Shown here one piece after another: positions 12,235-35,910 of a stretch of 42,114 nucleotides of DNA. The position numbers and the translations under genes were made by a program. The notes below the pieces were generated by a model, which worked only from the letters and a program-made list of their open reading frames with translations, made no database searches and was not told the origin of the DNA. Position 1 is the first letter of the stretch. Each line of letters starts with the position of its first letter. This DNA comes from a virus (lineage: Duplodnaviria > Heunggongvirae > Uroviricota > Caudoviricetes): IMG/VR virus record IMGVR_UViG_2875703104_000005, one strand, 5' to 3'.

Positions 12235-12565
12235 ATCAGCAGCAGAGCGCAAAGCCGCTCAGAGAGCCAGACAAGCTGCATCTGGTGTGCGTAAGCTGGA
12301 GATTGTGCTTGATGCTCAGGAAATTGAAATTCTGGAGCGTAACTGTGCCACGCGTCGCCCCGGGCGTGCGCCTTACGAATTTGGTGAGTATATAGCGTTA
12401 CTGATCCGCCAGGATGATGCACGCGTGCACGGGCGTATAAAATCGATCAGCAGAACACGTTGCGGTAAGTGCGGCGAGAGAGTTCCAGTTAATTCATGTC
12501 CGTGTAATGGTGACTCACAATGCTGGGTGACTAAAGGCTGGCATGAAACGAAATTAATAGTGTGA
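12227..12565 (+). CDS. Zinc-finger protein in the Q position (candidate late-gene regulator)
   Basis: Basic N-terminus and C-terminal CGKCG ... CPC cluster; last early-region gene, directly followed by a 14-mer repeat, a terminator, and an operator-like site before the terminase genes. Confidence 0.4.
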   Translation: MAKSAAERKAAQRARQAASGVRKLEIVLDAQEIEILERNCATRRPGRAPYEFGEYIALLIRQDDARVHGRIKSISRTRCGKCGERVPVNSCPCNGDSQCWVTKGWHETKLIV

Positions 12566-12574
12566 CATGTCACG
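12561..12574. repeat. 14-mer TGTGACATGTCACG, copy 1
   Basis: Overlaps the stop of the zinc-finger gene, 40 bp upstream of the terminator that precedes the terminase genes. Confidence 0.6.
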
Positions 12575-12614
12575 AGTAGATTATGCATGATGAATTTGAT
12601 GGATTTTGAATACT

Positions 12615-12640
12615 GCCGCCAACTATGGCGGCTTTATTTT
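12615..12640 (+). terminator. Intrinsic terminator between the early/nin region and the terminase genes
   Basis: Stem GCCGCC/GGCGGC, loop AACTAT, then TTTATTTT. Confidence 0.65.
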
Positions 12641-12650
12641 GCATGGTATT

Positions 12651-12667
12651 ATTACCACAACGGTAAC
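12651..12667. promoter_or_regulatory. Operator-like palindrome ATTACC-ACAAC-GGTAAC upstream of the terminase genes
   Basis: Between the 12615-12640 terminator and the terminase small-subunit start; a further ATTACC half-site follows at 12669-12674. Confidence 0.5.
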
Positions 12668-12683
12668 AATTACCACGGTAGTT

Positions 12684-13280
12684 ATGATGCCTGCTGAACC
12701 TAAAACCTATAAACGCAAATCAACGCAATTTAAGCCGCTCACAGCAATGCAGGAGGCTTATTGCCAGTCATACATCAAAACGCCTGAAAACCAGACTCAG
12801 GCTGCGATTAACGCAGGATTCTCCCCAAATACAGCGGCAGTTAAAGCCAGTGTCATGATGCGCGATGAACGCATTCAGAAACGGATTGCCGAGTTGATGG
12901 AGGAGCGCAACAAACGAATGCGTGTCAGTGCTGATTACGTTCTCATGCGCCTGGTGGAGATCGACCAGATGGACGTGATCGACATCCTCAACGACGATGG
13001 GAGCCTTAAACCAATCCGTGAGTGGCCGAAAATCTGGCGCACTACGCTTAGTGGCTTTGATCTGTCATCGACCATCATGAACATGAACGAGGATTCAATA
13101 GAGACAATCCTCAAAAAAATTAAATGGCCTGACAAGGTGAAGAACCTTGAGCTGATTGGTAAGCATGTTGATGTCAACGCATTCAAAGAACGTCTGGATG
13201 TTAATGTGAATGTGACAATTGCTGATCGCATAGCAGCAGCCAGGAAGCGACTCAAAGAACGTCAGGATGGTAATCAGTGA
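12684..13280 (+). CDS. Terminase small subunit
   Basis: LTAMQEAYCQSYIKTPENQTQAAINAGFSPNTAAVKA matches the Terminase_2 HTH pattern. Start set at ATG 12684 because the ORF-track TTG start (12606) would include an intrinsic terminator hairpin. Confidence 0.65.
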   Translation: MMPAEPKTYKRKSTQFKPLTAMQEAYCQSYIKTPENQTQAAINAGFSPNTAAVKASVMMRDERIQKRIAELMEERNKRMRVSADYVLMRLVEIDQMDVIDILNDDGSLKPIREWPKIWRTTLSGFDLSSTIMNMNEDSIETILKKIKWPDKVKNLELIGKHVDVNAFKERLDVNVNVTIADRIAAARKRLKERQDGNQ

Positions 13281-14752
13281 CAGATACAGCGTTATCTCCT
13301 GAAGAGCAGTTAATCGAGGATATTGCAGGGTTCACTCACGATCCGCTTGGCTATGCCCTCTATGCGTTCCCGTGGGGGGAAGATGGGACTGAACTGGCAC
13401 ATGCCACCGGTCCACGTCAGTGGCAGGCTGATGCGTTCCGAGAGATACGTGATCACCTGCAGAATCCAGAGACGCGCTATCAGCCGCTTATGCTGGCACG
13501 CGCTTCGGGTCACGGTATTGGTAAATCCGCATTCATCTCAATGCTGATCAACTGGGGCATGTCCACTTGCGAGGATTGTAAGGTTGTGGTGACCGCCAAC
13601 ACCGACAACCAGCTACGAACGAAGACCTGGCCGGAAATTATCAAGTGGTCGAACCTTGCTATCACGAAAGACTGGTTTACCTGTACCGCTACCGCGATGT
13701 ACAGCAATGACCCTGGGCACGACAAGCGGTGGCGAGCTGACGCAATCCCCTGGTCTGAGCACAACACTGAGGCGTTCGCCGGACTACACAACGAGCGCAA
13801 ACGCATCATCGTGGTATTCGATGAAGCGTCGAACATTGCGGATCTGGTGTGGGAAGTTGCTGAGGGTGCGCTTACGGACGAAGACACTGAGATTATCTGG
13901 GTAGCGTTCGGAAACCCTACACGTAACACCGGGCGTTTCCGCGAATGTTTCCGCAAATATAAACACCGCTGGAAAACTGCGCAGATTGACAGCCGGACGG
14001 TGGAAGGCACTAACAAACAGCAGTTGCAGAAATGGGTTGATGACTACGGGGAAGATAGCGACTTCGTTAAAATCCGTGTGCGCGGCATATTCCCTGATGC
14101 ATCTGAATTGCAGTTTATCCCTACCGGTCTTACTGACGAGGCAATGAAACGGGTGGTAACCGCTGCGCAGGTTGCACATGCTCCGGTGATAATCGGCGTT
14201 GACCCGGCATACTCAGGCGTTGATGACGCTGTGATATACCTGCGGCAGGGGCTGCACAGTAAGGTGCTGTGGACTGGCAACAAGACCACTGACGATCTGA
14301 TTATGGCGAAGCGTATCGCTGACTTTGAAGACCAGTACCAGGCTGACGCAGTGTTCATCGACTTCGGTTACGGAACTGGTCTGAAGTCAATCGGTGACGG
14401 CTGGGGTCGTACATGGCAACTTGTTCCGTTCGGTGGCGCGTCTACTGACCCGCAGATGCTCAACAAGCGTGGGGAGATGTTCAACTCATGCAAGACATGG
14501 CTGAGGCTCGGCGGCATGCTGGATGACCAGGAAACAGCGGACGACCTGTCGGCAGCAGAGTACAAAGTTCGTGTGGACGGTAAAATCGTTATCGAACCGA
14601 AGGAAGATATCAAGGAGCGGCTTGGGCGTTCGCCGGGTAAAGGCGATGCGCTACTGCTGACGTTTGCTTTCCCTGTGTCGAAGCGTCTGCGAATTCCTGG
14701 GCAGCAGAACCAGCAAGGCAAAGCCATCACAGACTATGATCCTTTTGCATAA
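13277..14752 (+). CDS. Terminase large subunit
   Basis: 491 aa; ATPase region (LARASGHGIGKSAFI; VVFDEASNI) and C-terminal nuclease region; GTG start overlapping the small-subunit stop. Confidence 0.85.
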   Translation: MTDTALSPEEQLIEDIAGFTHDPLGYALYAFPWGEDGTELAHATGPRQWQADAFREIRDHLQNPETRYQPLMLARASGHGIGKSAFISMLINWGMSTCEDCKVVVTANTDNQLRTKTWPEIIKWSNLAITKDWFTCTATAMYSNDPGHDKRWRADAIPWSEHNTEAFAGLHNERKRIIVVFDEASNIADLVWEVAEGALTDEDTEIIWVAFGNPTRNTGRFRECFRKYKHRWKTAQIDSRTVEGTNKQQLQKWVDDYGEDSDFVKIRVRGIFPDASELQFIPTGLTDEAMKRVVTAAQVAHAPVIIGVDPAYSGVDDAVIYLRQGLHSKVLWTGNKTTDDLIMAKRIADFEDQYQADAVFIDFGYGTGLKSIGDGWGRTWQLVPFGGASTDPQMLNKRGEMFNSCKTWLRLGGMLDDQETADDLSAAEYKVRVDGKIVIEPKEDIKERLGRSPGKGDALLLTFAFPVSKRLRIPGQQNQQGKAITDYDPFA

Positions 14753-14775
14753 AAAAGCCCGCGAATCGGCGGGCT
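14751..14775 (-). terminator. Intrinsic terminator after the minus-strand moron
   Basis: Stem AGCCCGC/GCGGGCT followed on the minus strand by TTTTTT. Confidence 0.65.
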
Positions 14776-14778
14776 GAT

Positions 14779-14792
14779 TGTGACATGTCACG
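14779..14792. repeat. 14-mer TGTGACATGTCACG, copy 2
   Basis: Immediately 3' of the terminator hairpin that follows the terminase large-subunit gene. Confidence 0.6.
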
Positions 14793-14795
14793 GCG

Positions 14796-15218
14796 TTAGA
14801 AGGTTATTTTATCGAATGCGGCGTTGATTGCCTTGGCGTCCTGCTCAGCACCAACCACATCAAGTAAAGATCTTTTACTAAGCACTTCAGCCAGGCATTG
14901 TAACTTCATGTTGTATAAGTTTTCGCGCATGTAATCATCATCACTTTTTTCTTTGGCGTATACAGCGCGAGAAATATCAAACACATTGCCTTTTTCCATT
15001 TCAGTTTTCTGCGCTGAAATCCAGTCATGGCAAGTAACTCCTATTCCATGGTCATCGCTAAGCGTTAACCCGGCAAGTCGCTCACCTGGAATTGCTTCAC
15101 AAAGCATTTCATTTCCTGCAAAAACACCATAAAAAATTGAGTCATCACCCTGAACAATGCGTACATATTTGCACGGCCATTCATTTAGATATTTAGCTAG
15201 CATGTCGGCTGTTTTCAT
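14796..15218 (-). CDS. Hypothetical moron protein, antisense insert between terminase and portal
   Basis: 140 aa; AAGGTGAG RBS; intrinsic terminators on both sides; opposite strand to the flanking late genes. Confidence 0.5.
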   Translation of the reverse strand: MKTADMLAKYLNEWPCKYVRIVQGDDSIFYGVFAGNEMLCEAIPGERLAGLTLSDDHGIGVTCHDWISAQKTEMEKGNVFDISRAVYAKEKSDDDYMRENLYNMKLQCLAEVLSKRSLLDVVGAEQDAKAINAAFDKITF

Positions 15219-15230
15219 GATCTCACCTTA

Positions 15231-15253
15231 AAAAAATGCCCGGCGAACCGGGC
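15231..15253 (-). terminator. Intrinsic terminator downstream of the tRNA-Arg
   Basis: Stem GCCCGG/CCGGGC, loop, then ATTTTTT on the minus strand, immediately before the moron RBS. Confidence 0.6.
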
Positions 15254-15416
15254 GAACTGGAAGCAATGAGTTATGCCTTCCGTGGCTGTACTGGTTTACA
15301 GCATGAAGTCATCGCAATGGCGTCCTGCTGTAAAAAGGGCGGTGATAGTCCTTCAAGGGAAACCATCACCGCCAAGCCCCTGGAACTTCTGGCATCACGG
15401 TCCTTAGGCGTGATTC

Positions 15417-15493
15417 TGGCGTGGCATGCAGGATTCGAACCTGCGACCAACCGCTTAGAAGGCGGTTGCTCTGTCCAACTGAGCTAATGCCAC
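15417..15493 (-). tRNA. tRNA-Arg (anticodon UCU), phage-borne
   Basis: 77-nt cloverleaf read directly: acceptor GTGGCAT/ATGCCAC, D-arm GCTC AGTTGGACA GAGC, anticodon loop CTTCTAA, T-arm GCAGG TTCGAAT CCTGC, discriminator G, CCA. Closely resembles enterobacterial argU-type tRNA. Confidence 0.8.
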
Positions 15494-15814
15494 AACGCTG
15501 AGAGCACTTAGCCTGTTAAGGCGCCACACTTTGTCGCGGCTCCATAAATGCTCTCATCGTTGTACCCTCGTCTCTTCCGAGGCGTCACACCGAATCGCCG
15601 GGATGGTGAATCCCCGTGCGCGGAATAAAACCGCTCGACTTGCACATTCCGGCTACCTGGTTCGTTTGCCACAGCCAGGGAGGGTGCCCCTTAAACGCAT
15701 CCAGACCGCTATCGGCGCATGTGCCATACGCCGTACTGCTCAAAATAAAAGCTCACTCCACCTGTTCAATTTAACGACAAGCCAGTCAGGTTAGTAACCG
15801 GAATGAACTCTTTG

Positions 15815-15831
15815 GTTACCTGAAAGGTAAT
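15815..15831. promoter_or_regulatory. Operator-like palindrome GTTACC-TGAAA-GGTAAT upstream of the portal operon
   Basis: 90 bp upstream of the first structural-operon ATG; core identical to the site at 36382-36398. Confidence 0.5.
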
Positions 15832-15920
15832 AATTCGCACGTTAAATGTCAACTGTCTACGATAAATAAATCATATGTGGTTAAATTGGTAATAATTTAA
15901 TTGCGTACGGAGTCATTGAT

Positions 15921-16127
15921 ATGTGCATGGGTAGCTCACCATCAGTGCCTGCAACACCAGAAGTTCAGGCAGCACCACAGGAGCAGGATGCCGCCGTTGT
16001 TGATGCCCGCGACGAAGAAACTCGTCGCCGTCGCGCTGCTGCTGGTCGTAGTTCTACGCTGCTTACCGGTTCTCAGGGCGACACATCAACTGCTAATACC
16101 AGCGGTAAAACGCTGCTTGGTCAGTAA
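15921..16127 (+). CDS. Small virion-associated protein (T7 gp6.7-like by position and composition)
   Basis: 68 aa starting MC, low complexity, immediately upstream of the portal gene with GGAG RBS. Confidence 0.4.
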   Translation: MCMGSSPSVPATPEVQAAPQEQDAAVVDARDEETRRRRAAAGRSSTLLTGSQGDTSTANTSGKTLLGQ

Positions 16128-16141
16128 CCGGAGTCATTGAA

Positions 16142-17821
16142 ATGGCGGAAACAACTAAAGAGCGATTGAACAAACAGTTCGCACAACTTGAAAGCGAGCG
16201 TCAGTCGTTCGAGCCGCACTGGCGCGAGTTGAGTGATTACATCAACCCGCGTGGTTCCCGCTTTCTGACTTCTGAGGTTAACCGTAACGATCGACGCAAT
16301 ACACGCATTATTGATTCGACCGGGACTATGGCGGCGCGCACTCTCGCCAGCGGCATGATGTCAGGCATCACAAGCCCCGCGCGTCCGTGGTTTCGCCTGG
16401 CTACGCCAGATCCTGAAATGATGGATTATGGCCCTGTTAAGTTGTGGCTTGAGGCGGTGCAGAACCGCATGAACGATATGTTCAATAAGTCGAATCTCTA
16501 TCAGTCGCTGCCGCAGTTATACGGAAGCCTCGGCACATACAGCACTGGTGCAATGGCAGTGCTGGAGGATGACGAGGACATCATTCGCACAATGCCATTC
16601 CCGATAGGCAGTTACTACCTGGCTAACTCACCTCGTGGCAGTGTGGACACCTGTTTTCGCAAGTTCTCTATGACTGTTCGTCAGCTTGTTCAGGAGTTCG
16701 GGCTAAATAACGTCAGCGAATCCGTAAAAAGCATGTGGGAAAGCGGAACCTACGAGAAGTGGATTGAAGTGATGCATTCGGTTTACCCGAACATTGACCG
16801 CGATACATCGAAGCTGGATAGCAAGAACAAGCCATTCAAATCGGTTTATTACGAGGTTGGTGGCGATAACGACAAGTTGTTGCGTGAGTCCGGATTCGAT
16901 GAGTTTCCAATTATGGCTCCGCGCTGGGAAGTTAACGGCGAAGATGTTTATGGATCATCATGCCCGGGTATGCTGGCGCTTGGACCTGTTAAGGCATTGC
17001 AGCTTCTCCAGAAGCGCAAGTCGCAGTTGATTGATAAAGCCACCAATCCGCCGATGGTTGCTCCGACTTCCCTCAAGAATCAGCGTGCCTCCCTTCTTCC
17101 TGGCGACATCACGTATATCGATCAGATTACTGGTCAGGATGGTTTCAGGCCTGCTTATCTGGTTAACCCCAGTACAGCAGATTTGGTGGCAGACATTCAG
17201 GACACCCGTCAAATCATTAACAGCGCCTACTTTGTCGATCTGTTCATGATGTTGCAGAACATCAATACCCGCTCGATGCCTGTTGAAGCGGTGATCGAAA
17301 TGAAAGAAGAAAAACTTCTGATGTTGGGGCCGGTTCTGGAGCGTCTGAACGACGAATGTCTTAATCCTCTCATTGACCGCGCTTTCTCGATGATGGTGCG
17401 TAAAAACATGCTGCCGCCACCGCCTGACGCGATGGAAGGTATGCCCCTGAAGGTCGAATACATTTCCGTCATGGCTCAGGCGCAGAAGTCTATCGGCCTG
17501 TCCAGTCTGGCGTCTACGGTCAACTTCATTGGTCAACTTGCGCAAGCGAAACCAGAAGCTCTCGACAAACTCAACGTTGATCAGGCGATCGATGCATTCG
17601 CTGATATGTCCGGAGTGTCTCCAACCGTCATTGTTCCGCAGGAACAGGTTGAGCAGGCTCGCCAGCAACGGGCACAGCAACAACAGCAGCAACAAATGAT
17701 GGCGATGGGGATGGCGGCGGCACAGGGTGCCAAGACGCTAAGCGAAGCTAAAACTTCGGATCCGAGTGTTTTGTCAGCTATGGCGAATGCAGTTAGTGGT
17801 CAGGGTGGGCAATCACAATGA
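16142..17821 (+). CDS. Portal (head-to-tail connector) protein
   Basis: 559 aa; Gln/Ala/Met-rich C-terminus (QQQQQQMMAMGMAAAQGA) resembles podovirus gp8-type portals; sits between terminase and scaffold/capsid. Confidence 0.75.
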   Translation: MAETTKERLNKQFAQLESERQSFEPHWRELSDYINPRGSRFLTSEVNRNDRRNTRIIDSTGTMAARTLASGMMSGITSPARPWFRLATPDPEMMDYGPVKLWLEAVQNRMNDMFNKSNLYQSLPQLYGSLGTYSTGAMAVLEDDEDIIRTMPFPIGSYYLANSPRGSVDTCFRKFSMTVRQLVQEFGLNNVSESVKSMWESGTYEKWIEVMHSVYPNIDRDTSKLDSKNKPFKSVYYEVGGDNDKLLRESGFDEFPIMAPRWEVNGEDVYGSSCPGMLALGPVKALQLLQKRKSQLIDKATNPPMVAPTSLKNQRASLLPGDITYIDQITGQDGFRPAYLVNPSTADLVADIQDTRQIINSAYFVDLFMMLQNINTRSMPVEAVIEMKEEKLLMLGPVLERLNDECLNPLIDRAFSMMVRKNMLPPPPDAMEGMPLKVEYISVMAQAQKSIGLSSLASTVNFIGQLAQAKPEALDKLNVDQAIDAFADMSGVSPTVIVPQEQVEQARQQRAQQQQQQQMMAMGMAAAQGAKTLSEAKTSDPSVLSAMANAVSGQGGQSQ

Positions 17822-18114
17822 CAGATTACGAAGACGATCAACTGAAAGAAGAAAACGCCCGTAAGCAACGTGACATGGCACAGCGTGAAATTGATGACAT
17901 TTGCTTTGTCATGAGCAGTGAACAGGGGCGTCGCGTTGTCTGGTCGGTGCTGGAGAAAGGCCGTGTGTTTTCCGCTATCTCACCGATGGACGCTATGGCT
18001 ATGGCATTTAATGAGGGGCAACGCAATCTGGCGCTGGAACTGTTTCAGCGCGTTATGGCGCATTGCCCTGAACAGTATTTGAAGATGGCCAAAGAGGCCA
18101 GTGAACAGGAGTGA
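17818..18114 (+). CDS. Hypothetical head-assembly protein
   Basis: 98 aa between portal and scaffold genes, translationally coupled. Confidence 0.45.
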   Translation: MTDYEDDQLKEENARKQRDMAQREIDDICFVMSSEQGRRVVWSVLEKGRVFSAISPMDAMAMAFNEGQRNLALELFQRVMAHCPEQYLKMAKEASEQE

Positions 18115-18812
18115 TCATGAATTTATTTGAGCGTTTGCTGTATCGCCGTCTTTGCAATGAGCAACCAGTCGATGGTGGAGCAGCTCCGGCTGCGTCAGAA
18201 CCGTCAGCGCCTGCAGGTGATAACCCTGCTCCAGTTGGTGATCCATCACAACCGGAAGGTGATAAGCCACAACCTGTTGCTGATGGCGATAAACCTGCTG
18301 ATGACAAAAAGCCTGAAAACGATAAGCAGGATGAAAAAAAGGACGGCGATAAAACAGAGGGTGCGCCTGAGAAGTACGAGTTTCAGGCTGCCGAAGGCGT
18401 AGAGCTGGATACAGAAGCGTTGAAGGAATTCGAGCCGGTGGCGCGAGAACTAAACCTGACCAACGAGCAAGCGCAAAAGCTGGTTGATGCTTATCCGAAG
18501 ATTCTGGCAGGTGTTCAGCAGCGCCAGGCAGAAGCCTGGCAGAAAACAACCGAGCAGTGGGCTGCTGATGTAAAAGCTGACAAAGAAATCGGTGGCGACA
18601 AGTTGATTTCTAACCTTAGCGCCGCACAGCGTGCGCTTGACCAGTTCGGGACACCTGAACTCAAAGAATATCTGAACACCACCGGGCTGGGTAATCACCC
18701 TGATCTGGTCAAAACGTTCGTGAAAATCGGAAAGGCGATGTCTGAAGATGGCATGGTCACCGGTGGTAATGAAGGCCAGCGTAGTGCGGCCGAAGTGCTC
18801 TATGGCAAATAA
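18111..18812 (+). CDS. Scaffolding protein
   Basis: 233 aa, acidic, Pro/Asp/Lys-rich, immediately upstream of the capsid gene. Confidence 0.55.
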   Translation: MIMNLFERLLYRRLCNEQPVDGGAAPAASEPSAPAGDNPAPVGDPSQPEGDKPQPVADGDKPADDKKPENDKQDEKKDGDKTEGAPEKYEFQAAEGVELDTEALKEFEPVARELNLTNEQAQKLVDAYPKILAGVQQRQAEAWQKTTEQWAADVKADKEIGGDKLISNLSAAQRALDQFGTPELKEYLNTTGLGNHPDLVKTFVKIGKAMSEDGMVTGGNEGQRSAAEVLYGK

Positions 18813-18826
18813 GAGAGGAAATGACA

Positions 18827-19813
18827 ATGGCTGTTAAAGGCTTAACTGCGCTAACGCTGGCTGACTGGGGTAAGCGCGTCGATCCAAACGGGAAAGTCGA
18901 TAAGATTATCGAGCTTCTCGGTCAAACTAACCCGATCCTTCAGGATATGCCTTTTGTCGAAGGGAACCTTCCTACCGGACACCGAACCACCATTCGTTCT
19001 GGTTTACCTTCAGCTACCTGGCGTTTGCTGAACTATGGCGTACAGCCAAGCAAATCAACCACAGTACAGGTAACCGATTCCGTTGGCATGCTGGAAACCT
19101 ATGCGGAAGTCGATAAGTCACTGGCTGATCTGAACGGCAATACCGCCGAATTCCGCCTGTCTGAAGACCGCGCATTTATTGAAGCGATGAATCAGCAGAT
19201 GGCGCAGACGCTGTTTTATGGTGATTCCAGCGTTAACCCTCAGCAGTTTATGGGACTGTCCTCCCGCTATTCCAGCCTGTCTGCGGGTAATGCTCAGAAC
19301 ATCATTGATGCTGGTGGCACGGGTACAGATAACACCTCAATCTGGTTAGTGGTGTGGGGCGAAAACACCGTGCATGGCATCTTCCCGAAAGGGCAGAAGG
19401 CTGGCATCCAGATGGAAGATAAAGGCCAGGTGACACTGGAAGATGCTAATGGCGGCAAGTACGAAGGCTATCGCACCCATTACAAATGGGATAACGGACT
19501 TGCTCTGCGTGACTGGCGTTATGTTGTTCGCATTGCAAACATCGATGTCAGCAATCTTTCAGAACCTTCCTCTGCCGCAAATATTGCGAAGTTGATGGTT
19601 AAAGCACTGCATCGCATTCCAAATCGTGGCATGGGTCGCCCGGTGTTCTACATGAACCGCACTGTAGGCCAGGCTCTTGATCTGCAATCTCTGGAGAAAA
19701 CATCTCTGGCGATCAGCGTAAAAGAGACAGAAGGCGAGTGGTGGACTTCATTCCGTGGTGTACCAATCCGTGAAACTGATGCGCTTCTGGAAACAGAAGC
19801 CCGCGTGGTGTAA
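18827..19813 (+). CDS. Major capsid protein
   Basis: 329 aa after the scaffold gene; strong AGAGAGGA RBS; size and position fit a major capsid protein. Confidence 0.65.
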   Translation: MAVKGLTALTLADWGKRVDPNGKVDKIIELLGQTNPILQDMPFVEGNLPTGHRTTIRSGLPSATWRLLNYGVQPSKSTTVQVTDSVGMLETYAEVDKSLADLNGNTAEFRLSEDRAFIEAMNQQMAQTLFYGDSSVNPQQFMGLSSRYSSLSAGNAQNIIDAGGTGTDNTSIWLVVWGENTVHGIFPKGQKAGIQMEDKGQVTLEDANGGKYEGYRTHYKWDNGLALRDWRYVVRIANIDVSNLSEPSSAANIAKLMVKALHRIPNRGMGRPVFYMNRTVGQALDLQSLEKTSLAISVKETEGEWWTSFRGVPIRETDALLETEARVV

Positions 19814-19864
19814 CGCCTGTTATTAACCTGTGGGTCGTAACAGACCCACTAATGGAGAAAGAAG

Positions 19865-20302: not shown

Positions 20303-20312
20303 GGTGATATTG

Positions 20313-20648: not shown

Positions 20649-20666
20649 GCCTCGCGGATCAGACAA

Positions 20667-20687
20667 GGGGCTTCGGCCCCTTTATTG
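20667..20687 (+). terminator. Intrinsic terminator / attenuator after the capsid gene block
   Basis: Stem GGGGC/GCCCC with TTCG tetraloop, then TTTATTG. Confidence 0.55.
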
Positions 20688-20698
20688 CAGGAGTGTAT

Positions 20699-27875: not shown

Positions 27876-30800
27876 TGCCGATATATGAACAGGATCCTAA
27901 AGAGTTGCTTGGCGAGGGTATTCAGCAAATAGCAGCACCTGATGACAGTAATTTCTATATGGAAACACCTTCTTTGCTTTCTGCTGTGAACCCATTTACC
28001 AGTGATCAACGCGTTCAAAGGTCTAGACAAGCAGCATTTCGTATAGATAACACGCTGGGTAGCTTTATTGCCAGTGCTCCTTTCAGTCAGTTTGACAGGG
28101 TTGAAGGATATAACCCATTTGATAACGATGCAGCAGATATTAAAGGCTATGAAGATTTTGCAGATTCGTTTATCAACTCCGGTTCGCATGAAGAAACAAT
28201 GGCAATTAAACATCGAATCGATCAGCAGAGAGCTGACATGGAATACAATTCAGGCTTGGGATTTGCTGGTACAGTCTCTTCTGTAGCAATGAGATTAGCA
28301 GATCCATTCAATGCGATTTCTATGTTTATTCCGTTCGGCGCTGTCGTTCGTGGCGGTCGTATTGCAGAAACAGCCGGACGTTTTGCTTTAGCCAATGCTG
28401 CTGGCAGTGTTGCTTCAGAGGCCGCATTGCAGGCCACTCAGGAAGCTCGCTCACCGATGGAGAGCGTATCGAACGTTGTTGTTGATGCTCTCGTTGGTGG
28501 GATCCTTGGTGCTGGTGCACAGCTACTTGCTGGACCTAGCGCGCGCGAGGCAGTGGTTAACTCAGTAGGTAATCATTTGCGAGGTATGGATTCTCCTCAA
28601 AGCATTGGTGCAGCTCAGGTTTTCAATACCACACTCGATCAGGAACAGCTTGCTGGACTTGGACTTGCTAACAAAACGTTGAGTGTCACTCCTGCTGGCC
28701 GCTTGGCGCAATCACCATCTCTTGTTTCCCGTCAGATTAACCAGCAGCTTGCCGAAAATAACTATTTCTTCGCCAAAAATGATGAGGGGTTGGCTACGTT
28801 TACGGCAGTCGAGACTAAGATTAAGCAATACGACGCCATGCTTTATAAGCAGATGGAAGCTACTCGTGATGCTTACCAGCAGTACAGCAAATCTGTCAGC
28901 GCCCGCGGCGTGAAGAGGATGAACTTTATTGATTTCAATGAAGCTGTTGGCATGGCTATGCGCCGTGGTGATCAGAGTGATATTCCTGAGGTTTCACAAG
29001 CAGCCGCCAGAATCCGCCCCATTTTTGAGACCACAAAAGCCCGTATGCAGGAATTGGGGATCCTTCCTGAGGATATCGATGTCGTGACGGCGAAGAGTTA
29101 TCTTCCCCGCATTTATAAGTTCGATAAGATACTTTCCGACCGCACTGAATTCAGAGGGCGAATTGCCAACTGGATACAAGGGATTAGTGCCAAAGGTGCT
29201 GACAAAGCAGGTCAGCGAATTGAAAAGATAAATTCATTGCTAAAAACTGCAGAGGAATCAGCACCGCGCGCTGATGCTCTCGCTAGTGAAATCGCTGAAG
29301 CGGAGAAATGGTCTGGTAAAAAAATTCTACTCATGGAAGAACTGGATAAACGAAATAAGCTTATATCTCAGGAGACTGACACACAGGCGCGTCTTACAAG
29401 AATAGAAAAAGAGTTGGCCGAGACTTCATCAGAAAAACTTCAGGCAAGAATGATGAAAGAAAGCTCTGACCTTAAAACACGCCTTGATGATATAGCGCAG
29501 GCAAAGAGTGAGCTTCCTGTCTATCAGCGCCATATGGAGTTGCTGGATAATCCACGGAAATATCGTTCTGAGCTTCGCCGACTGCAAAAACGGGCAAATT
29601 CAACCACAAGGCTGAATGCAAGCCGCGAGCGAGCACTGAAGCAGATGGAGCCTCTATCCCGAGAGGAAGCAGAGGACGCTGCTGACGAGATCGTGAATAA
29701 AATAATAGGCGCACCTTCCGGGCTTGTACCAGCCGATATTATCCCAGAGAGACTCGTTGGTCGGGCTGGTTTCACTAAAAGCCGAACGCTGCTTATTCCT
29801 GATGAGCGTATAGAAGATTTTCTTGAATCAGATGTTAACTACATCATGGAAAGTTATCTCCGGCAGGTGGCACCAGAAATTGAGCTGACTGCGCAGTTTG
29901 GCCGTAAAGATATGGGGGAGCAAATCCGTCAGGTTAGTGAGGAATATACCCGGCTAATAAAAGAGGCTAAAACACCTAAACGACGTGCAGCTCTTGAGAA
30001 GCAACGGGAGGCTGATATTAGGGATATTACGGCTATGCGTGACCGACTGCTTGGTACTTACGGCGCACCTCAAGATCCACGCAGTTTCTTTGTTCGTGCC
30101 GGGCGAGTTGCTAGGAATATTAACTTCCTCCGTTTGCTTGGTGGAATGACCGTCTCCGCTGCAACTGATCTGATGCGACCGATGATGCAGCATGGCCTGA
30201 GAAAATCTCTCGGACCAATGGTAAGCATGCTTAAAAATATGGACTCAGTGAAAATTGCAACCAGGGATTTGCGAGAAATGGCAGTTGGGCTTGATTATGT
30301 CCTGTCTACGCGTACAAAGGCTATAGCGGATCTTACTGACCCCTATAGCCGGAGAAGCGCCGCTGAGCGAGGTCTGAACTGGATGACGCAGAAATTCGGT
30401 AACTGGACGCTGATGAATCAGTGGAACAGCGCACTTAAATCATGGTCTGGGATGATAGTGCAGTCGAGGATACTTGACGCGGCTCGCCAAGTTTCTGCTG
30501 GTGGCACGCTCTCCAAAAGTGAAATGCGGAAGATGGCACAGGTCGGCATCAATGAAGATGTTCTGCGCCGAATCGGGGAGCAATTCGGGAAGCACGGAGA
30601 GGATATGGACGGGCTGTTAACCGGGCATAGTCATCTGTGGGATGACCGTTTCGCTAGAGAGATTTTCCAGTCTGCAGTGCTGAAAGATGTAGACTCAGTG
30701 ATTGTAACGCCTGGCGTAGGTGATACACCGCTGTTTTTTAGTAAAGAAGGCTGGAAGATGATCACGCAGTTCAAAACGTTTATCTTCGCACAGCATAACA

Positions 30801-31264
30801 GGGTGCTGGTATCTGGTATCCAGCAGGGCGATGCTGCATTCTATCTTGGTGCGCTTGGCACGATTGCGCTTGGCTCAATGGTCTATATGATGAAACAGAA
30901 GTTAAGCGGTCGCGATATCGACTACAGCTGGAATAACCTTGTGAAAGAGGGGATCGACCGGGGCGGAATGCTTGGCTGGCTCTCTGAGCCGCTGAATACC
31001 GTTGAGAACATAAGCGGCGGTAGGTTTGGTCTTGGCGCGATGTTTGGTGCGCCTCCGGTATCAAGGTTTCAGAGTCGTAATGCTATTGGTGCTTTACTTG
31101 GTCCTACCTTTGATCTTGGCGGTGATGCCGCGACGGTTGCGAATGGTGTACTTAACGGAGAATTTGACAGCCAGCAAACCCACGCGGTCCGTAAAATGCT
31201 ACCTTTTCAGAACCTGTGGGCGATATCACCATTACTGAATAAAGTTGAAGAGCAGATGAAATAG
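27875..31264 (+). CDS. Very large internal virion / DNA-ejection protein
   Basis: 1129 aa, long coiled-coil middle region, C-terminal hydrophobic segments; last gene of the core string. Confidence 0.5.
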   Translation: MPIYEQDPKELLGEGIQQIAAPDDSNFYMETPSLLSAVNPFTSDQRVQRSRQAAFRIDNTLGSFIASAPFSQFDRVEGYNPFDNDAADIKGYEDFADSFINSGSHEETMAIKHRIDQQRADMEYNSGLGFAGTVSSVAMRLADPFNAISMFIPFGAVVRGGRIAETAGRFALANAAGSVASEAALQATQEARSPMESVSNVVVDALVGGILGAGAQLLAGPSAREAVVNSVGNHLRGMDSPQSIGAAQVFNTTLDQEQLAGLGLANKTLSVTPAGRLAQSPSLVSRQINQQLAENNYFFAKNDEGLATFTAVETKIKQYDAMLYKQMEATRDAYQQYSKSVSARGVKRMNFIDFNEAVGMAMRRGDQSDIPEVSQAAARIRPIFETTKARMQELGILPEDIDVVTAKSYLPRIYKFDKILSDRTEFRGRIANWIQGISAKGADKAGQRIEKINSLLKTAEESAPRADALASEIAEAEKWSGKKILLMEELDKRNKLISQETDTQARLTRIEKELAETSSEKLQARMMKESSDLKTRLDDIAQAKSELPVYQRHMELLDNPRKYRSELRRLQKRANSTTRLNASRERALKQMEPLSREEAEDAADEIVNKIIGAPSGLVPADIIPERLVGRAGFTKSRTLLIPDERIEDFLESDVNYIMESYLRQVAPEIELTAQFGRKDMGEQIRQVSEEYTRLIKEAKTPKRRAALEKQREADIRDITAMRDRLLGTYGAPQDPRSFFVRAGRVARNINFLRLLGGMTVSAATDLMRPMMQHGLRKSLGPMVSMLKNMDSVKIATRDLREMAVGLDYVLSTRTKAIADLTDPYSRRSAAERGLNWMTQKFGNWTLMNQWNSALKSWSGMIVQSRILDAARQVSAGGTLSKSEMRKMAQVGINEDVLRRIGEQFGKHGEDMDGLLTGHSHLWDDRFAREIFQSAVLKDVDSVIVTPGVGDTPLFFSKEGWKMITQFKTFIFAQHNRVLVSGIQQGDAAFYLGALGTIALGSMVYMMKQKLSGRDIDYSWNNLVKEGIDRGGMLGWLSEPLNTVENISGGRFGLGAMFGAPPVSRFQSRNAIGALLGPTFDLGGDAATVANGVLNGEFDSQQTHAVRKMLPFQNLWAISPLLNKVEEQMK

Positions 31265-31265
31265 G

Positions 31266-32114
31266 ATGAAAAAAATAAATTTGTTTGGCATTGTGCTTTC
31301 AATAGTCGCTGTAAATCCTACAGCCGCCAGTTCATTGCAATGCAATAAGGATAACTTTGATGCATGCAAAACGTGTGAACAATTATCAAAGGCTATCGAC
31401 TTAAAAGAACCTAATCGCGGCGATTACTATAGAGGGGCTTTATGGAATGGGCTTTACGTCTCCTATGTAATTAATTGCCCTGTGGTTGCTGAGAAGTTAT
31501 TGAGCCATGGTGCTATACCATCATATGGCGGATATATGGGGTCTATGGGGGCGGTTCTGACAGGGAAATGGCCTCATAACAATGAATCAATAAATCTTTC
31601 ATGGGCAGATTTGCTTATAAAACATGGGTTTGATGTTAATAAGCATACTGGGCATTATAAATCAGCTACTGAGGTATGGGCTATAGATAAAAAACAGATT
31701 GAATATAAGTCAGTGTTTGACAAGTTAATTCAATCCAGCGAAGTAAAACCACTCGATCCTTCAAGAAATTTAGAATGGTGTGCGTCTGAAGGGTATCGCT
31801 CAGTTGTCGTTTATTCCCTTAACTCATGTATAGAAAATGCTATAAAACGTTTAGATGACGGTGTTTCTTCAGCGTCTGATATTTCATCCGCAGCCGTAAA
31901 TTCATGTACTAGCGATGTAGAAAATTTCAATAAGCATTTGTCATGCAAATCAGCTGTTAAAGAAAATTCTGATAAAGAGAAAAGAAACGTTTATCAGTTA
32001 TTAACCAGTGATAGTCAAATGAATAAAAATGTTATGGATATGCTGAAGGAAAGAAATATTGAAACGGTTCTTGAATTCAGAGCTGAAAATCGTGCAATGA
32101 AAACTTCACAATAA
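31266..32114 (+). CDS. Secreted protein of unknown function (low-GC moron)
   Basis: 282 aa; N-terminal signal peptide (MKKINLFGIVLSIVAVNPTAASS), several Cys, possible ankyrin-like repeats; markedly AT-rich compared with flanking genes. Confidence 0.5.
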   Translation: MKKINLFGIVLSIVAVNPTAASSLQCNKDNFDACKTCEQLSKAIDLKEPNRGDYYRGALWNGLYVSYVINCPVVAEKLLSHGAIPSYGGYMGSMGAVLTGKWPHNNESINLSWADLLIKHGFDVNKHTGHYKSATEVWAIDKKQIEYKSVFDKLIQSSEVKPLDPSRNLEWCASEGYRSVVVYSLNSCIENAIKRLDDGVSSASDISSAAVNSCTSDVENFNKHLSCKSAVKENSDKEKRNVYQLLTSDSQMNKNVMDMLKERNIETVLEFRAENRAMKTSQ

Positions 32115-32191
32115 TAAAACATCTGTTCTGGATTGCGCCACTAATAAACCAGGTGGATCCGGTGATGAAGTAATTTTATAGAGGTGCTTAT

Positions 32192-32488
32192 ATGGATATT
32201 AAAGAGTTTAGTGAGTTAGAGAGACGCTATGAGCAAGCTAAAACGAACCGAGCTATAGGGGCATTTATTGGCGGCGGTGGGGTATTTGCTCTGTTAGCCG
32301 ATTTTTTATGGGATGTTGCGAACCCAATATCAATAGGGGTATTAATAGGCGGCGGACTTGTTTTTTTTGCTGTATGCCACGAACAGGTTCGAAGTTCATT
32401 AAGAAAGTTGGATGAAGAATGTTATTTGAAGTATGGCAAGTCTTACTCTCAATCATTCCATGAAATTTTTAAAGACAAATATAATTAG
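32192..32488 (+). CDS. Small two-transmembrane protein (low-GC moron)
   Basis: 98 aa; two Gly-rich hydrophobic helices (AIGAFIGGGGVFALL; ISIGVLIGGGLVFFAV); GAGGTG RBS; AT-rich. Confidence 0.5.
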   Translation: MDIKEFSELERRYEQAKTNRAIGAFIGGGGVFALLADFLWDVANPISIGVLIGGGLVFFAVCHEQVRSSLRKLDEECYLKYGKSYSQSFHEIFKDKYN

Positions 32489-32836
32489 TTAGTGGCGGGA
32501 GAAATAGTACACACGGAAATAAGTTACCGTCATAATCAACCGTGTCGATATCGATACGGTTGATGTTTCAATACTTTCGCGGATTACAGGGCAGACTTTG
32601 TTTGGCTGAATGCTTGAAAGCCAAGCCGCAAACTTACGAAAGGCAAGGCATATCATTAACTGTTTACCGCCAGCAGAAGGTATTTCGATTTCCGAAATAC
32701 CTTTGACAAATCTCTGTTTTAATTTAACAAATTGAGCAGCCCAAACCATACCCATGCCTTCAACGATAGGTTTCATTGGGGTGTACGGTTCGCCGTTGTG
32801 ATTGACGACATAAAGCTCTGCGCCGTGTAATGGCAC
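32489..32836 (-). pseudogene. Probable truncated remnant of a phage regulatory / anti-repressor-like gene
   Basis: 115-aa ORF whose N-terminal two thirds look like a conserved phage domain and whose C-terminus is low-complexity; abuts the moron and the inverted-repeat leader. Confidence 0.3.
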
Positions 32837-32983
32837 GTTGATAGTAGTGACAAATTTGAAACATCGCTGGTTGTAAGCCAGCAGATGCTCGTTATTTTAC
32901 GTCGCGGCACAATTTCTCGCTGCTGGCTCTTTTACACACATTAACCAAATATGGTTGATTTTAATGTTTGTCTGTGTCTATCA

Positions 32984-33000
32984 TTACCTTTGCGGTAAAT
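32984..33000. promoter_or_regulatory. Operator-like palindrome ATTACC-TTTGC-GGTAAA at the start of the left anti-repressor leader
   Basis: Marks the start of the inverted-repeat leader that precedes the Bro-N anti-repressor gene. Confidence 0.5.
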
Positions 33001-33090
33001 TTACACCGCACTCCTCTTGTGCCATAGTAATCGGGCACTGGCAAAATCCAGTGCCGGGATTGGCGTCCCGGATTACTAAAAGGCGCATTC

Positions 33091-33110
33091 ACCGCGCAAG
33101 CGGTTTTTTT
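33091..33110 (+). terminator. Leader terminator / attenuator upstream of the Bro-N anti-repressor
   Basis: Stem ACCGC/GCGGT with GCAA loop and a 7-T run, about 100 nt downstream of the operator-like site. Confidence 0.5.
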
Positions 33111-33267
33111 ATGCGTATAGCACGGCCACATTCGTATTATGGTGGGCTGTGTGGGGGCACCGAAAGGTGCGCCGGGTCCTTTTAGCCGGTTACGCCAACC
33201 CTGCACAGTTCACCACCAACCGATTGGCGTCGGTAGTGGTGATTAACCAGACTAAAAGGTAACCACT

Positions 33268-33963
33268 ATGACAGCTACAAAAAGCACGTCCATTTTTTCT
33301 TTCGAATCTCAAGCCGATATACGGGTAATCGTCATTAATGGTGAGCCATGGTTTATCGCTTCAGATGTTTGTCGGGCTATAGGCATAGCAAACCATCGAG
33401 ATGCTGTTCGAAAACTTGATGATGATGAGAAGGGCGTCGCTTCAACCGACACCCCTGGCGGTGAGCAAGAATCGATCATTATCTCCGAGTCAGGCCTCTA
33501 CACACTGATCCTCCGCTGCCGCGATGCGGTGACACCAGGCACTATCCCATACCGCTTTCGTAAATGGGTTACAGGTGAGGTTCTTCCTCAGATCCGCCGC
33601 ACCGGAAGTTACATTAAAAACTCGCTCCCGCAGGAAGAACGCATAAAGATGGTTGCCGACCAGGTAGCCAACGCCACGGCGTCAGCAGTAATGCAGGCGA
33701 TGAAGATAGAGAACAAAACCTACAGTGCCCCGCTGAAGCCCGGCTACCGCAGCCTGATTCATTCGCCGTCGGGTGTTCTCGGCCTGACGGAGAACTCACT
33801 GCTGATGAATCTGCTGAACCAGTTACAGGAAGACGGGCACGACGTATCGGGCGCGGCGGCGGAACTGACCACCATGTTCTGCTACATCGTCGGTGTGAGC
33901 AAATGCCTGCGTGATATCCAGACGCACGCGGAGTACATCAACGACAAGGCAGGGTTCTTCTGA
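33268..33963 (+). CDS. Anti-repressor, Bro-N N-terminal domain with shared C-terminal domain
   Basis: 231 aa; Bro-N pattern (IRVIVINGEPWFIASDVCRAIG ... ESGLYTLILRCR); C-terminal 80 aa identical to the C-terminus of the 35074-35730 product. Confidence 0.7.
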   Translation: MTATKSTSIFSFESQADIRVIVINGEPWFIASDVCRAIGIANHRDAVRKLDDDEKGVASTDTPGGEQESIIISESGLYTLILRCRDAVTPGTIPYRFRKWVTGEVLPQIRRTGSYIKNSLPQEERIKMVADQVANATASAVMQAMKIENKTYSAPLKPGYRSLIHSPSGVLGLTENSLLMNLLNQLQEDGHDVSGAAAELTTMFCYIVGVSKCLRDIQTHAEYINDKAGFF

Positions 33964-33990
33964 CGGGCGGCGGCACAGGGATGTGCCTTT
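33721..33990. repeat. Inverted repeat, anti-repressor C-terminal domain, left arm (partner 35048-35316)
   Basis: About 240 bp coding the shared 80-aa domain plus about 25 bp of 3' flank; only about two mismatches seen. Confidence 0.8.
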
Positions 33991-34034
33991 AAATAATTCT
34001 GTACAGATTGCAGACTGGGGGTGAATAGCGTACT

Positions 34035-34051
34035 ATTACCTCAAGGGTAAG
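34035..34051. promoter_or_regulatory. Operator-like palindrome ATTACC-TCAAG-GGTAAG upstream of the moron
   Basis: 59 bp upstream of the ATG at 34110. Confidence 0.45.
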
Positions 34052-34109
34052 AAAGCATTTTTAATCTTCCCTTCAAAACGCGTCCTGTAGCCAAACATGG
34101 GAGGACGAA

Positions 34110-34742
34110 ATGAGAACAAATACAACAAGAAAAGCGATGCCATACATTATCCCAGAAGCAGATTTCGATAGAAAACTGAACATGTCTGAGAAGAACACTA
34201 GTCACACCGAAAGCTACTTAGCGAAAGGTGTGGTTGATTTCGTTCTTCCGGGATTCACAACACCTTATGGTTATCGCCTTGTAAAATCTTGTAATGGCGA
34301 TCATTACAGAATGATTACTACCAGCGATACTCCAGAAACGGTGTATGCGGTTAAGTTAATCTTTCGGGAAGATATCGTCGAAGCCAAAAGAACATGTACG
34401 CAGATCATGGTATGGCGTACGCCTAATGTTATTCATGACCGTGCTGTTCATGGTTTGCCTCAGATTTTTTTTCAGTTCTTCCTAGAGCAATATGCGATCG
34501 TTGTATCTGATGAGCAACAAACAATCGATGGGAGAAGATTCTGGGAAAGAATGATTTCTTGGGCTATAAACACCCCAGGATATAATGTATACGTTTCAGA
34601 TGGCTCTGAAGAAGATAGACCTCTTAGCTTCATGACATCATGGGATGATTTCTATAGCCAGTGGGCTGATTTCTGTTGGGGCAGTGATAAAGATGTGCAT
34701 ACCCACAGACTACTGGTTATAAGCAAAGATAAACTGCATTAA
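34110..34742 (+). CDS. Hypothetical moron protein with its own operator-like site and terminator
   Basis: 210 aa; GGAGG RBS; operator-like palindrome 59 bp upstream; strong terminator immediately downstream; lower GC than the core genome. Confidence 0.5.
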   Translation: MRTNTTRKAMPYIIPEADFDRKLNMSEKNTSHTESYLAKGVVDFVLPGFTTPYGYRLVKSCNGDHYRMITTSDTPETVYAVKLIFREDIVEAKRTCTQIMVWRTPNVIHDRAVHGLPQIFFQFFLEQYAIVVSDEQQTIDGRRFWERMISWAINTPGYNVYVSDGSEEDRPLSFMTSWDDFYSQWADFCWGSDKDVHTHRLLVISKDKLH

Positions 34743-34745
34743 TAG

Positions 34746-34770
34746 AAGCCCGCAGCGCGGGCTTTTTTGT
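34746..34770 (+). terminator. Intrinsic terminator after the moron
   Basis: 8-bp stem AAGCCCGC/GCGGGCTT, loop AGC, then TTTTTT. Confidence 0.7.
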
Positions 34771-34840
34771 GGACGAAACAAAAGTCAGTGCTACACTCAT
34801 TGACGCCACATTGAGGTGGCTTATAGATGGAAATTTCACA

Positions 34841-35002
34841 ATGAAAAAAGCATTTGCTGCACTGTTCGTTTTGTTGTCTCTGGTAGCTTCAACTCAGGCC
34901 TTTGCCGGTCGTTGTCAGCACGACAGCGATACTGCCGCTGACGGCTCCCGCTGCGGTGGGCGTTCTGCGGATTCCCGCCCAGGCGGCGGTGGCATTCGTT
35001 AA
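34841..35002 (+). CDS. Small secreted Gly/Arg/Cys-rich peptide (53 aa)
   Basis: Signal-peptide-like N-terminus MKKAFAALFVLLSLVASTQAFA; weak RBS, so tentative. Confidence 0.3.
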   Translation: MKKAFAALFVLLSLVASTQAFAGRCQHDSDTAADGSRCGGRSADSRPGGGGIR

Positions 35003-35024
35003 AAACAAGGCCGCGAAAGCGGCC
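35001..35024 (-). terminator. Intrinsic terminator after the AntA-type gene
   Basis: Stem GGCCGC/GCGGCC, loop GAAA, then TTGTTTTT on the minus strand. Confidence 0.55.
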
Positions 35025-35038
35025 TGTGACATGTCACG
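35025..35038. repeat. 14-mer TGTGACATGTCACG, copy 3
   Basis: Immediately 3' (plus strand) of the hairpin that terminates the AntA-type gene. Confidence 0.6.
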
Positions 35039-35047
35039 ATAGTTTCG

Positions 35048-35888: not shown

Positions 35889-35910
35889 AAAAAAACCACG
35901 TCTGGCGTGG
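35889..35910 (-). terminator. Leader terminator / attenuator upstream of the AntA-type anti-repressor
   Basis: Stem CCACG/CGTGG with a 7-T run at the equivalent leader position; stem sequence differs from the left arm but pairing is preserved. Confidence 0.5.

Follow-up and report, generated by a model that had tools for sequence, protein, structure and literature searches.

A Repeated Palindrome Is the Probable Operator of a Small Phage Protein

We identified a probable regulator-site pair in IMG/VR virus record IMGVR_UViG_2875703104_000005, a stretch of 42,114 nucleotides (the window) which represents a phiV10/epsilon15-like (Uetakevirus) prophage of Escherichia coli. The site is the 14-mer TGTGACATGTCACG, which is present in three exact copies. 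The candidate regulator is a protein of 112 amino acids encoded at 12227..12565 on the plus strand by the last gene of the early-right operon, a member of the phiV10 gp55/epsilon15 gp49/N15 gp46 family (PHROG 536). We propose, with reasonable though not high confidence, that this protein recognises the 14-mer as its cognate DNA site (operator). The gene and the palindrome occur together in podoviruses, siphoviruses, a myovirus and marine prophages, and we infer from this and from the predicted fold of the protein that it binds the palindrome.

The copies are located at 12561-12574 (site 1), 14779-14792 (site 2) and 35025-35038 (site 3), all on the plus strand of the window; in the feature list the sites are given no strand. 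The initial annotation had reported three identical copies at these places and considered a chance origin very unlikely, and both statements were confirmed. Scanning for the motif with up to two mismatches gave seven matches, a count that includes minus-strand scores as each near-palindromic copy also matches on that strand, and none of 100 dinucleotide-preserving shuffles contained as many (mean 0.30). The inner 12 bases of the 14-mer, GTGACATGTCAC, form a perfect 12-bp palindrome. For its core, GTGAC-NN-GTCAC, three sites were observed where a first-order Markov model predicts 0.029 (Poisson P ~4e-6). A fourth copy with one mismatch is found on the minus strand at 17869-17882. Because it lies within a coding region and drifts to a two-mismatch form in 33 relatives, it was treated as a chance match and discarded as a real site.

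The common orientation of the copies, also pointed out initially, holds for the window and is not conserved beyond it. In phiV10 the cassette of copy 3, which comprises the motif and the hairpin, has the opposite orientation to that in the window; the epsilon15 counterpart of copy 3 is the perfect palindrome TGTGACATGTCACA and contains the stop codon of gp18. The functional unit is therefore the symmetric 12-mer.

The Palindrome Accompanies the Gene in Distant Phage Groups

Bases 3-5 (TGA) of site 1 are the stop codon of the gene encoding the 112-amino-acid protein, and the stop codon of the family gene likewise lies within the palindrome in phiV10 and epsilon15. The epsilon15 record notes similarity of gp49 to gp46 of phage N15. 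In N15 the stop codon of gp46 is inside the palindrome CGTGACTGGTCACG, and two further identical 14-mers are present, one within repA and one upstream of the antirepressor genes, the latter about 24 nt upstream of a promoter-like sequence (TTGACG-18-TAGAGT). In N15-like contigs GTGAC-NN-GTCAC was found at or just past the end of the gene in 49 of 49 cases: in 46 it is at the stop codon, and in three it lies 21 bases beyond the end of the matched stretch; 48 of the 49 carry GTGACTGGTCAC, with TG in the centre. These contigs also keep the repA copy wherever the locus reaches that far. Pectobacterium phage ZF40 contains three copies of GTGACATGTCAC, located 2 nt after the stop codon of the homologue, inside a cII-like gene and inside gp08. 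Vibrio phage K303 has three sites with a 2-bp spacer and one with a 3-bp spacer.

The number of GTGAC-N2-GTCAC sites in genomes that carry the gene was three in the window, epsilon15, N15, ZF40 and K303 and two in phiV10, which has one additional mismatched site; as a rule one of the sites overlaps or adjoins the stop codon of the gene. For each of these six genomes 0.02-0.04 sites are expected, with P values from 1e-6 to 4e-4 (Markov/Poisson), and the frequency of the half-site is not elevated in them. That the motif might be abundant irrespective of context was considered initially and is not what was found: phages lambda and P22, which both lack the family gene, have no GTGAC-N2-GTCAC site, and the motif is absent from a 10-kb sample of E. 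coli K-12. Conversely, 46 of 120 IMG/VR stretches that were chosen solely by the 14-mer encode a homologue within the stored stretch; in some of these 46 the site lies in a cII-like open reading frame (ORF).

The association extends to distant homologues, which among those examined show 29-52% identity to their query. A scan of genomes for homologues, for which an alignment of six sequences was used, returned five loci. In a Paraglaciecola metagenome-assembled genome TGTGACAGGTCACA contains the stop codon of the homologue, and in Tolumonas 6 nt separate the stop codon from TGTGACCGGTCACA. In Psychromonas the palindrome lies inside the gene of the homologue, and in Symbiopectobacterium a C-terminal extension includes it, translated as VTGH. 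Some homologues of the 112-amino-acid protein end in '...VTGH...', encoded by GTGACCGGTCAC. The cII-like genes also carry the palindrome in frame, as seen in ZF40 gp12 (position 7622) and in two IMG/VR contigs (positions 1499 and 1398). Translated by hand, it reads CDMSQ or RDMSH about 80 nt before the stop codon, and the conservation of this peptide would reflect a constraint at the DNA level. A Photobacterium prophage with a homologue of 29% identity has two sites with a 3-bp spacer (4278 and 10963), situated in a longer repeat, and no site with a 2-bp spacer; some lineages may thus use a 3-bp spacer.

The 112-Amino-Acid Protein Is Predicted to Contain a Ribbon-Helix-Helix Core and a Zinc Knuckle

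The family comprises 149 cluster representatives at E <=1e-3. Its hosts belong to the Enterobacterales, Vibrionales, Aeromonadales and Alteromonadales, and members are also present in Vibrio and Aeromonas phages. The match to PHROG 536 carries the label 'transcriptional regulator', which has no experimental basis; in the databases searched no family name with an experimental basis was found, and apart from this label the proteins are listed as 'hypothetical protein'. The protein of the window has no Pfam or NCBIfam match. Family members share the pattern A.RK..QR.R ... E..L ... PY..EY...LI..D ... C.KCG..LP..C...G...C. The N-terminus (AERKAAQRARQ) is rich in arginine, and Arg8 and Arg13 are nearly invariant.

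A confident AlphaFold2 model of the protein (pLDDT 92.6) consists of a basic helix (residues 5-19), an extended segment (20-29), two helices (30-42 and 52-74), a Cys4 knuckle and a short C-terminal helix. The predicted fold is a ribbon-helix-helix (RHH) DNA-binding core followed by a Cys4 zinc knuckle; the predicted structure has the strand-helix-helix arrangement that dimerises through the strand, as is characteristic of RHH proteins. Among 60 family members, one or two reach E-values of 0.01-0.07 for RHH_5, RHH_1 or TacA1.

Taken together, a dimer of the protein would bind the two-fold symmetric GTGAC-N2-GTCAC. Arg8 and Arg13 of the N-terminal helix are candidates for reading the invariant arms, and the central dinucleotide, which varies between lineages, would face the beta-ribbon. 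The initial annotation had listed a host or phage regulator among the possible binders of the motif. A phage regulator is well supported, if indirectly, by the co-occurrence with the gene, the copy on its stop codon and the RHH model, and a host factor is unlikely.

Several observations weigh against this assignment. The association of gene and site is correlative. The arms of the palindrome are invariant and do not co-vary with the protein, and the specificity is therefore deduced from co-occurrence only. K303 and two IMG/VR lineages lack a site at the stop codon of the gene itself. The positions of the other sites differ by lineage (within repA and upstream of the antirepressor operon in N15, within gp08 and the cII-like gene in ZF40), and no single positional logic, be it promoter or terminator, holds everywhere. 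Site 2 is absent from 12 of 76 close relatives and is thus dispensable. With respect to the fold, no curated RHH family was matched at a significant E-value, and a Foldseek search against the PDB gave nothing significant.

The Sites Are Located at the Ends of Transcription Units

The three sites of the window are not at promoters. They are found at the 3' ends of three transcription units, 5' of intrinsic terminators, between convergent or successive modules. The pairs of units that they separate are the early and terminase units (site 1), the terminase unit and a convergent unit of a tRNA-Arg and a moron (site 2), and the virion-side unit and a convergent antirepressor unit controlled by C4 RNA (site 3). 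The terminase genes (TerS from 12606 or 12686, TerL 13277-14752) have site 1 on one side and site 2 on the other, in agreement with the earlier description of two copies bracketing the terminase module. Site 2 is bounded on one side by the TerL stop codon and the hairpin and on the other by the stop codon with which the convergent minus-strand gene 14796-15218 ends; site 3 is situated between the end of the plus-strand unit (ORF 34769-35002) and the convergent minus-strand AntA gene (35074-35730).

It had also been stated that each copy is next to an intrinsic terminator. This is correct for copies 2 and 3, which abut G+C-rich hairpins whose T-tracts are on the minus strand according to the terminator scan, so that these terminators end the convergent minus-strand genes. 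The terminator at site 2 (14748..14775, minus strand; hairpin 14756-14775, T-tract 14755-14748) ends the unit of the tRNA-Arg and gene 14796-15218, and the motif is 3-4 nt 5' of it on that strand. The terminator at site 3 (35000..35025, minus strand; hairpin 35008-35025 followed by TTGTTTTT) ends the antirepressor unit and is abutted by the motif on its 5' side. Site 1 has no adjoining hairpin; it overlaps the TGA stop codon of ORF 12227-12565, and the nearest terminator (12615..12640, plus strand) is 40 nt downstream and consists of GCCGCC-AACTAT-GGCGGC (12615-12632) followed by TTTATTTT. This terminator lies upstream of ATTACC...GGTAAC operators and TerS, and its equivalent is annotated in epsilon15. 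In Uetakeviruses the order is stop codon, motif, 0-40 nt and intrinsic terminator, on whichever strand has the T-tract. The core was found in 169 distinct contexts, most of them from related Uetakeviruses. A terminator-like hairpin is present within 70 nt in 97 of the contexts, and the motif is 5' of such a hairpin in 90 of the 97.

The Sites Are Conserved in Close Relatives and Border Mosaic Junctions

The initial annotation named a lack of the motif at equivalent boundaries in related phages as a refutation, and the motif is in fact retained there. phiV10 and epsilon15 have it at the same three places as the window; site 1 of phiV10 has one mismatch and is split by the ends of the record. 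Allowing one mismatch, 79 of 80 close relatives in IMG/VR have site 1, and the exception is the phiV10 record, whose end falls within the site. Of 76 close relatives, 64 have site 2, and in the other 12 the entire segment after TerL is replaced. In these 12 relatives AT-rich foreign genes abut the TerL stop codon in place of the hairpin, site 2 and the usual moron, and the junction after TerL is a hot spot for cargo genes.

A scan of IMG/VR contigs for exact copies of the 14-mer indicated that homology between contigs stops precisely at the edge of the motif, with at least 10 unrelated flanks per site. Site 1 is retained beside the gene for the 112-amino-acid protein irrespective of the downstream sequence, differing minus-strand genes each end 3 nt from site 2, and the hairpin-motif cassette of site 3 has at least 10 different flanks. 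The sites indicate the points at which morons are gained and lost, a help for the annotation and engineering of prophages. The inversion of the site 3 cassette involves a segment of about 48 bp with terminator hairpin and motif (window 34980-35080, phiV10 19486-19560), which is bordered by short inverted GC-rich stretches (ggcggcggtggc ... gccgccgccg).

Several IMG/VR relatives contain a gene for a 109-amino-acid protein between site 1 and TerS, driven by a strong promoter (TTGACT-17-TATACT) that has a consensus LexA box (6270-6680 in one contig). Judged by eye, without a library scan, the protein (MGFPSPAKDY...) appears UmuD-like, and the gene would be an SOS-controlled moron. A link of the motif to LexA-controlled antirepressors was rejected, as the gene that follows the LexA-box promoter is this UmuD-like moron before TerS. 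The possibility that site 1 is a cos or pac site was rejected as well: the phiV10 record begins in site 1 only because it was linearised after the stop codon of the last gene, and in N15, a cos phage, the sites are far from cos.

Proposed Role of the Sites

The 112-amino-acid protein is a late product of the early-right operon, and it would act only once this delayed-early protein has built up. Bound to its sites, the protein may act on elongating RNA polymerase at unit boundaries: it could be a symmetric roadblock or insulator, or it could modulate terminator read-through locally. It would thereby set how far early, terminase, virion and antirepressor transcripts enter neighbouring units during lytic growth. 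This regulatory output, read-through control or insulation at operon boundaries, is speculative. Some of the ZF40 and N15 sites are found inside the leftward and rightward early operons, at a depth of a few hundred bp, and for this reason shut-off or a roadblock fits better than activation. The distance from site to promoter is inconsistent (near -47 in one lineage, near -66 in N15, none elsewhere), and promoter regulation is therefore ranked low.

The combination of the protein and its putative site resembles several known systems in part. The closest resemblance in the site is to matS, the 13-bp site with consensus GTGACRNYGTCAC which is bound by MatP, the organiser of the E. coli Ter macrodomain (PMC6907758 Table 2 for the consensus). 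Both sites have the half-sites GTGAC ... GTCAC, both have two-fold symmetry and the one is bound, the other predicted to be bound, by an RHH protein; in both systems sites are found in or between genes rather than at promoters, and the host ranges are similar. However, matS has a spacer of 3 bp (RNY), whereas the sites of the window, phiV10, epsilon15, N15 and ZF40 are all 12-mers with a 2-bp centre and do not match the 13-bp consensus. A true matS consensus, GTGACACCGTCAC, occurs in K303 as the spacer-3 site (19491-19503), where it overlaps the stop codon of gene 0027. At the protein level no homology to MatP was detected with hhalign, in which the family profile was compared with the single E. 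coli MatP sequence (probability 0.6%), and the MatP domains PF06303 and PF17414 gave no match. The four-helix bundle and coiled coil of MatP are absent from the phage protein, which has the Cys4 zinc knuckle instead. The systems also differ in scale, with 23 matS sites over 800 kb versus about three sites on a 40-kb phage, and in the presence of one phage site on the stop codon of the gene itself.

RHH repressors and antitoxins such as Arc, Mnt, CopG, ParD, MazE, TacA and the PutA N-domain have operators that overlap their own promoters. The phage sites are instead on a stop codon, beside terminators or inside ORFs, and promoter-like matches around them are no more frequent than in shuffles. 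The phage family differs further in its extra basic N-terminal helix and C-terminal zinc module. From the DksA/TraR proteins (TraR, YbiI) the phage protein shares the C-x2-C-x17-C spacing (C79-x2-C82-x17-C100), the 'CG..(I/L)P' motif and the order of a long helix, CxxC-x17-C and a second helix, although the fourth zinc ligand (Cys) is displaced; the helix by which TraR enters the RNA polymerase secondary channel corresponds to helix B of the RHH core in the phage protein. In a profile search of PDB sequences YbiI and TraR were at the top (E 0.017-0.02), with an hhalign probability of 55%. Fold searches do not recover TraR and zf-dskA_traR is not among the 25 families displayed by the Pfam scan. 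Since the fold searches give no confirmation, the likeness to DksA/TraR is kept as a lead only.

A more far-reaching possibility, which we regard as unlikely, builds on both resemblances and holds that the protein is a DNA-tethered effector and not a repressor of the classical type. It would either be a site-specific factor with a TraR/DksA-like zinc module that contacts RNA polymerase at operon ends, or a counterpart of MatP/matS that employs matS-like sites of spacer 2 and loops the phage genome or unloads host complexes of the MukBEF or structural maintenance of chromosomes (SMC) type. In the first case termination or read-through at boundaries would be conditional on the delayed-early protein, a terminator-by-terminator analogue of nut or Q sites made of protein and DNA. 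If true, this would be a new and widespread class of phage cis/trans elements in temperate phages of gamma-proteobacteria.

For an RHH protein with a palindromic operator, the site on the stop codon of its own gene, the presence of about three sites per genome at unit ends, the arms identical to those of matS and the zinc module are unusual. The identity of the half-sites raises the question whether the phage and host systems were derived from one another and whether there is cross-talk between them. The pair of regulator and site is common to N15-type telomere phages, ZF40, Vibrio and Aeromonas phages and marine prophages, and it is unremarked in the searchable literature: a search for GTGACATGTCAC found nothing, two papers with GTGACTGGTCAC were unrelated, and the motif is not mentioned in the vB_EcoP_ZX5 paper or in papers on telomere phages. 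Prophages like epsilon15 and phiV10 are common in E. coli and Salmonella, with 129 of 5,426 complete E. coli genomes holding at least 80% of the first 25 kb of the window, and the pair may bear on the timing and insulation of their late, moron and antirepressor units. With one small protein and one 12-bp site it offers a handle that is cheaply testable.

Alternative Explanations for the Repeated Motif

One alternative is an element acting at the RNA level, either a small hairpin in the 3' untranslated region (GUGA-CAUG-UCAC) that stacks on the terminator hairpin, or a site like nut/boxB to which the arginine-rich N-terminal helix of the protein binds; in either form it would stabilise 3' ends or load an antiterminator. 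The Uetakevirus motif is indeed found 0-35 nt after a stop codon and before the terminator on the strand of the T-tract, folding predicts a 4-bp hairpin directly beside the terminator stem, and the N-terminus AERKAAQRARQ is rich in arginine. The hairpin alone is weak, however (-2.7 kcal/mol, z -1.5), and conservation is of the two-fold sequence symmetry, the arms being fixed while the centre varies freely, as would be expected if a dimer binds duplex DNA. Variation is limited to rare single changes, and these show no compensatory pattern. In N15 and ZF40 sites are found in both orientations, within ORFs and also ahead of promoters, none of the sites is covered by an Rfam family, and the predicted fold is that of a duplex-DNA binder. 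We consider an RNA element rather improbable. The identity of the arms to matS suggests another candidate, a matS-like site that is bound by host MatP or another host protein and ties the phage to chromosome organisation. The hosts of the family (Enterobacterales, Vibrionales, Aeromonadales and Alteromonadales) overlap the MatP-bearing clade, and K303 has its true matS-consensus site. A host factor is nevertheless very unlikely: all enterobacterial copies have a spacer of 2 rather than 3, which alters the phasing of the half-sites, the sites follow the phage gene and not the host, with one copy on the stop codon of that gene, and lambda and P22 have no site in the same hosts. CRP, LexA and LacI had been excluded by eye in the initial annotation, and rightly so, as spacing or sequence is wrong for each; the motif reads TGTGA-N4-TCACG, compared to TGTGA-N6-TCACA for CRP and CTGT-N8-ACAG for LexA, and the LexA-like box is elsewhere (36328-36343).

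A boundary sequence promoting modular exchange was also among the roles suggested at the start, and a short linker that promotes exchange or inversion of modules between phages would explain why homology breaks at the edge of the motif with at least 10 right-hand flanks at each of the three sites, and why the hairpin-motif cassette of phiV10 is inverted relative to the window; the phage also encodes RecE/RecT-like functions. Yet 12-14 bp is very short for homologous exchange, the palindrome is kept within ORFs and away from mosaic junctions in N15-like phages, ZF40 and marine prophages, and junctions are expected to gather beside any indispensable short site. The breaks in homology stand, but they more likely result from a conserved functional site than explain why it exists, and there is little chance that the motif is a recombination linker. 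The suggestion of an antitermination or Q-utilisation element has points in its favour. The Uetakevirus motif is 5' of terminators and copy 1 is at the position of lambda Q/qut: as in lambda (QBE-PR'-tR'), the last early gene is directly upstream of the late (packaging) genes, the site comes next and an intrinsic terminator follows within 40 nt. Accordingly GTGACA could be the -35 element or the Q-binding element (QBE) of a late promoter, with the terminator at 12615-12632 as tR'; a scan gives GTGACA-18-CATGAT at site 1, and in epsilon15 GTGACA-17-TAAATT can be read by eye. This match at site 1 is weak, and what lies downstream of the motif is not conserved, which applies to any -10 element as well. 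Relatives show either unrelated sequence or the next ribosome-binding site there, and in many the Shine-Dalgarno sequence and ATG of the next gene begin 4-10 nt downstream of the motif. No plausible -10 is present at sites 2 and 3, and promoter-like matches are, as noted, no commoner than in shuffles. The protein is outside the Q family (no Pfam, NCBIfam or PDB match to Q proteins was found), N15 and ZF40 encode separate Q-like proteins beside the 112-amino-acid family, and the phages differ from lambda in having three sites per genome and no conserved promoter or pause element. A Q-type site accounts for the position of copy 1 alone. Of the explanations considered, a promoter element or Q-type site is the least probable.

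A Second Palindrome Family and Other Features of the Prophage

The window contains a second palindrome, ATTACC-N5-GGTAAT, with 16 matches at up to two mismatches compared to about one expected, 10 of which have at most one mismatch. Copies are located at 5025-5103, 5799-5815, 6184-6200, 8086-8164, 12651-12685, 15815-15831, 32983-32999, 34035-34051, 36001-36017 and 36382-36398. Most are found where a unit starts, either next to the repressor gene or ahead of TerS, gp3, the two Ant modules and the tailspike gene. The epsilon15 record labels the equivalent copies as 'repressor' sites. If this label is right, the late units are under direct repressor control. The 14-mer was rejected as an operator of the prophage repressor, because the 'repressor' sites of epsilon15 are this different and much larger set. 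As ATTACC-N5-GGTAAT constitutes a separate set at unit starts, the 14-mer represents a second, independent palindrome system at unit ends.

A near-consensus LexA box (CTGTATATTTATACAG) is present at 36328-36343, between the minus-strand antirepressor unit and the tailspike gene, and adjoins the perfect ATTACC-N5-GGTAAT at 36382. Its position suggests that the antirepressor is under SOS control.

From the left, the prophage consists of the integrase gene, the early region, the terminase genes (12.6-14.75 kb) and the virion genes up to about 32 kb, followed by two antirepressor modules, the tailspike gene and lysis genes. The tRNA-Arg (anticodon TCT) is encoded at 15417-15493 on the minus strand, upstream of the moron 14796-15218, and overlaps the plus-strand ORF 15236-15487 (equivalent to phiV10 p04), which was listed mechanically. 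Two inverted copies of an isrK-like small RNA with a C4 antisense RNA, both above the Rfam gathering score, are found at 33035-33220 (plus strand) and 35780-35965 (minus strand). C4 antisense RNA is known from antirepressor control of the P1 c4 type, and the two copies are followed by the antirepressor genes 33268-33963 (plus strand) and AntA (minus strand), respectively, with site 3 between the 3' ends of both modules. The TerS start annotated in phiV10 (41-715 of its record) is equivalent to a TTG at 12606 and would enclose the terminator at 12615-12632 and the ATTACC operators. The ATG used in epsilon15, equivalent to 12686-12689, is a better fit, and the phiV10-type start is probably mis-set.

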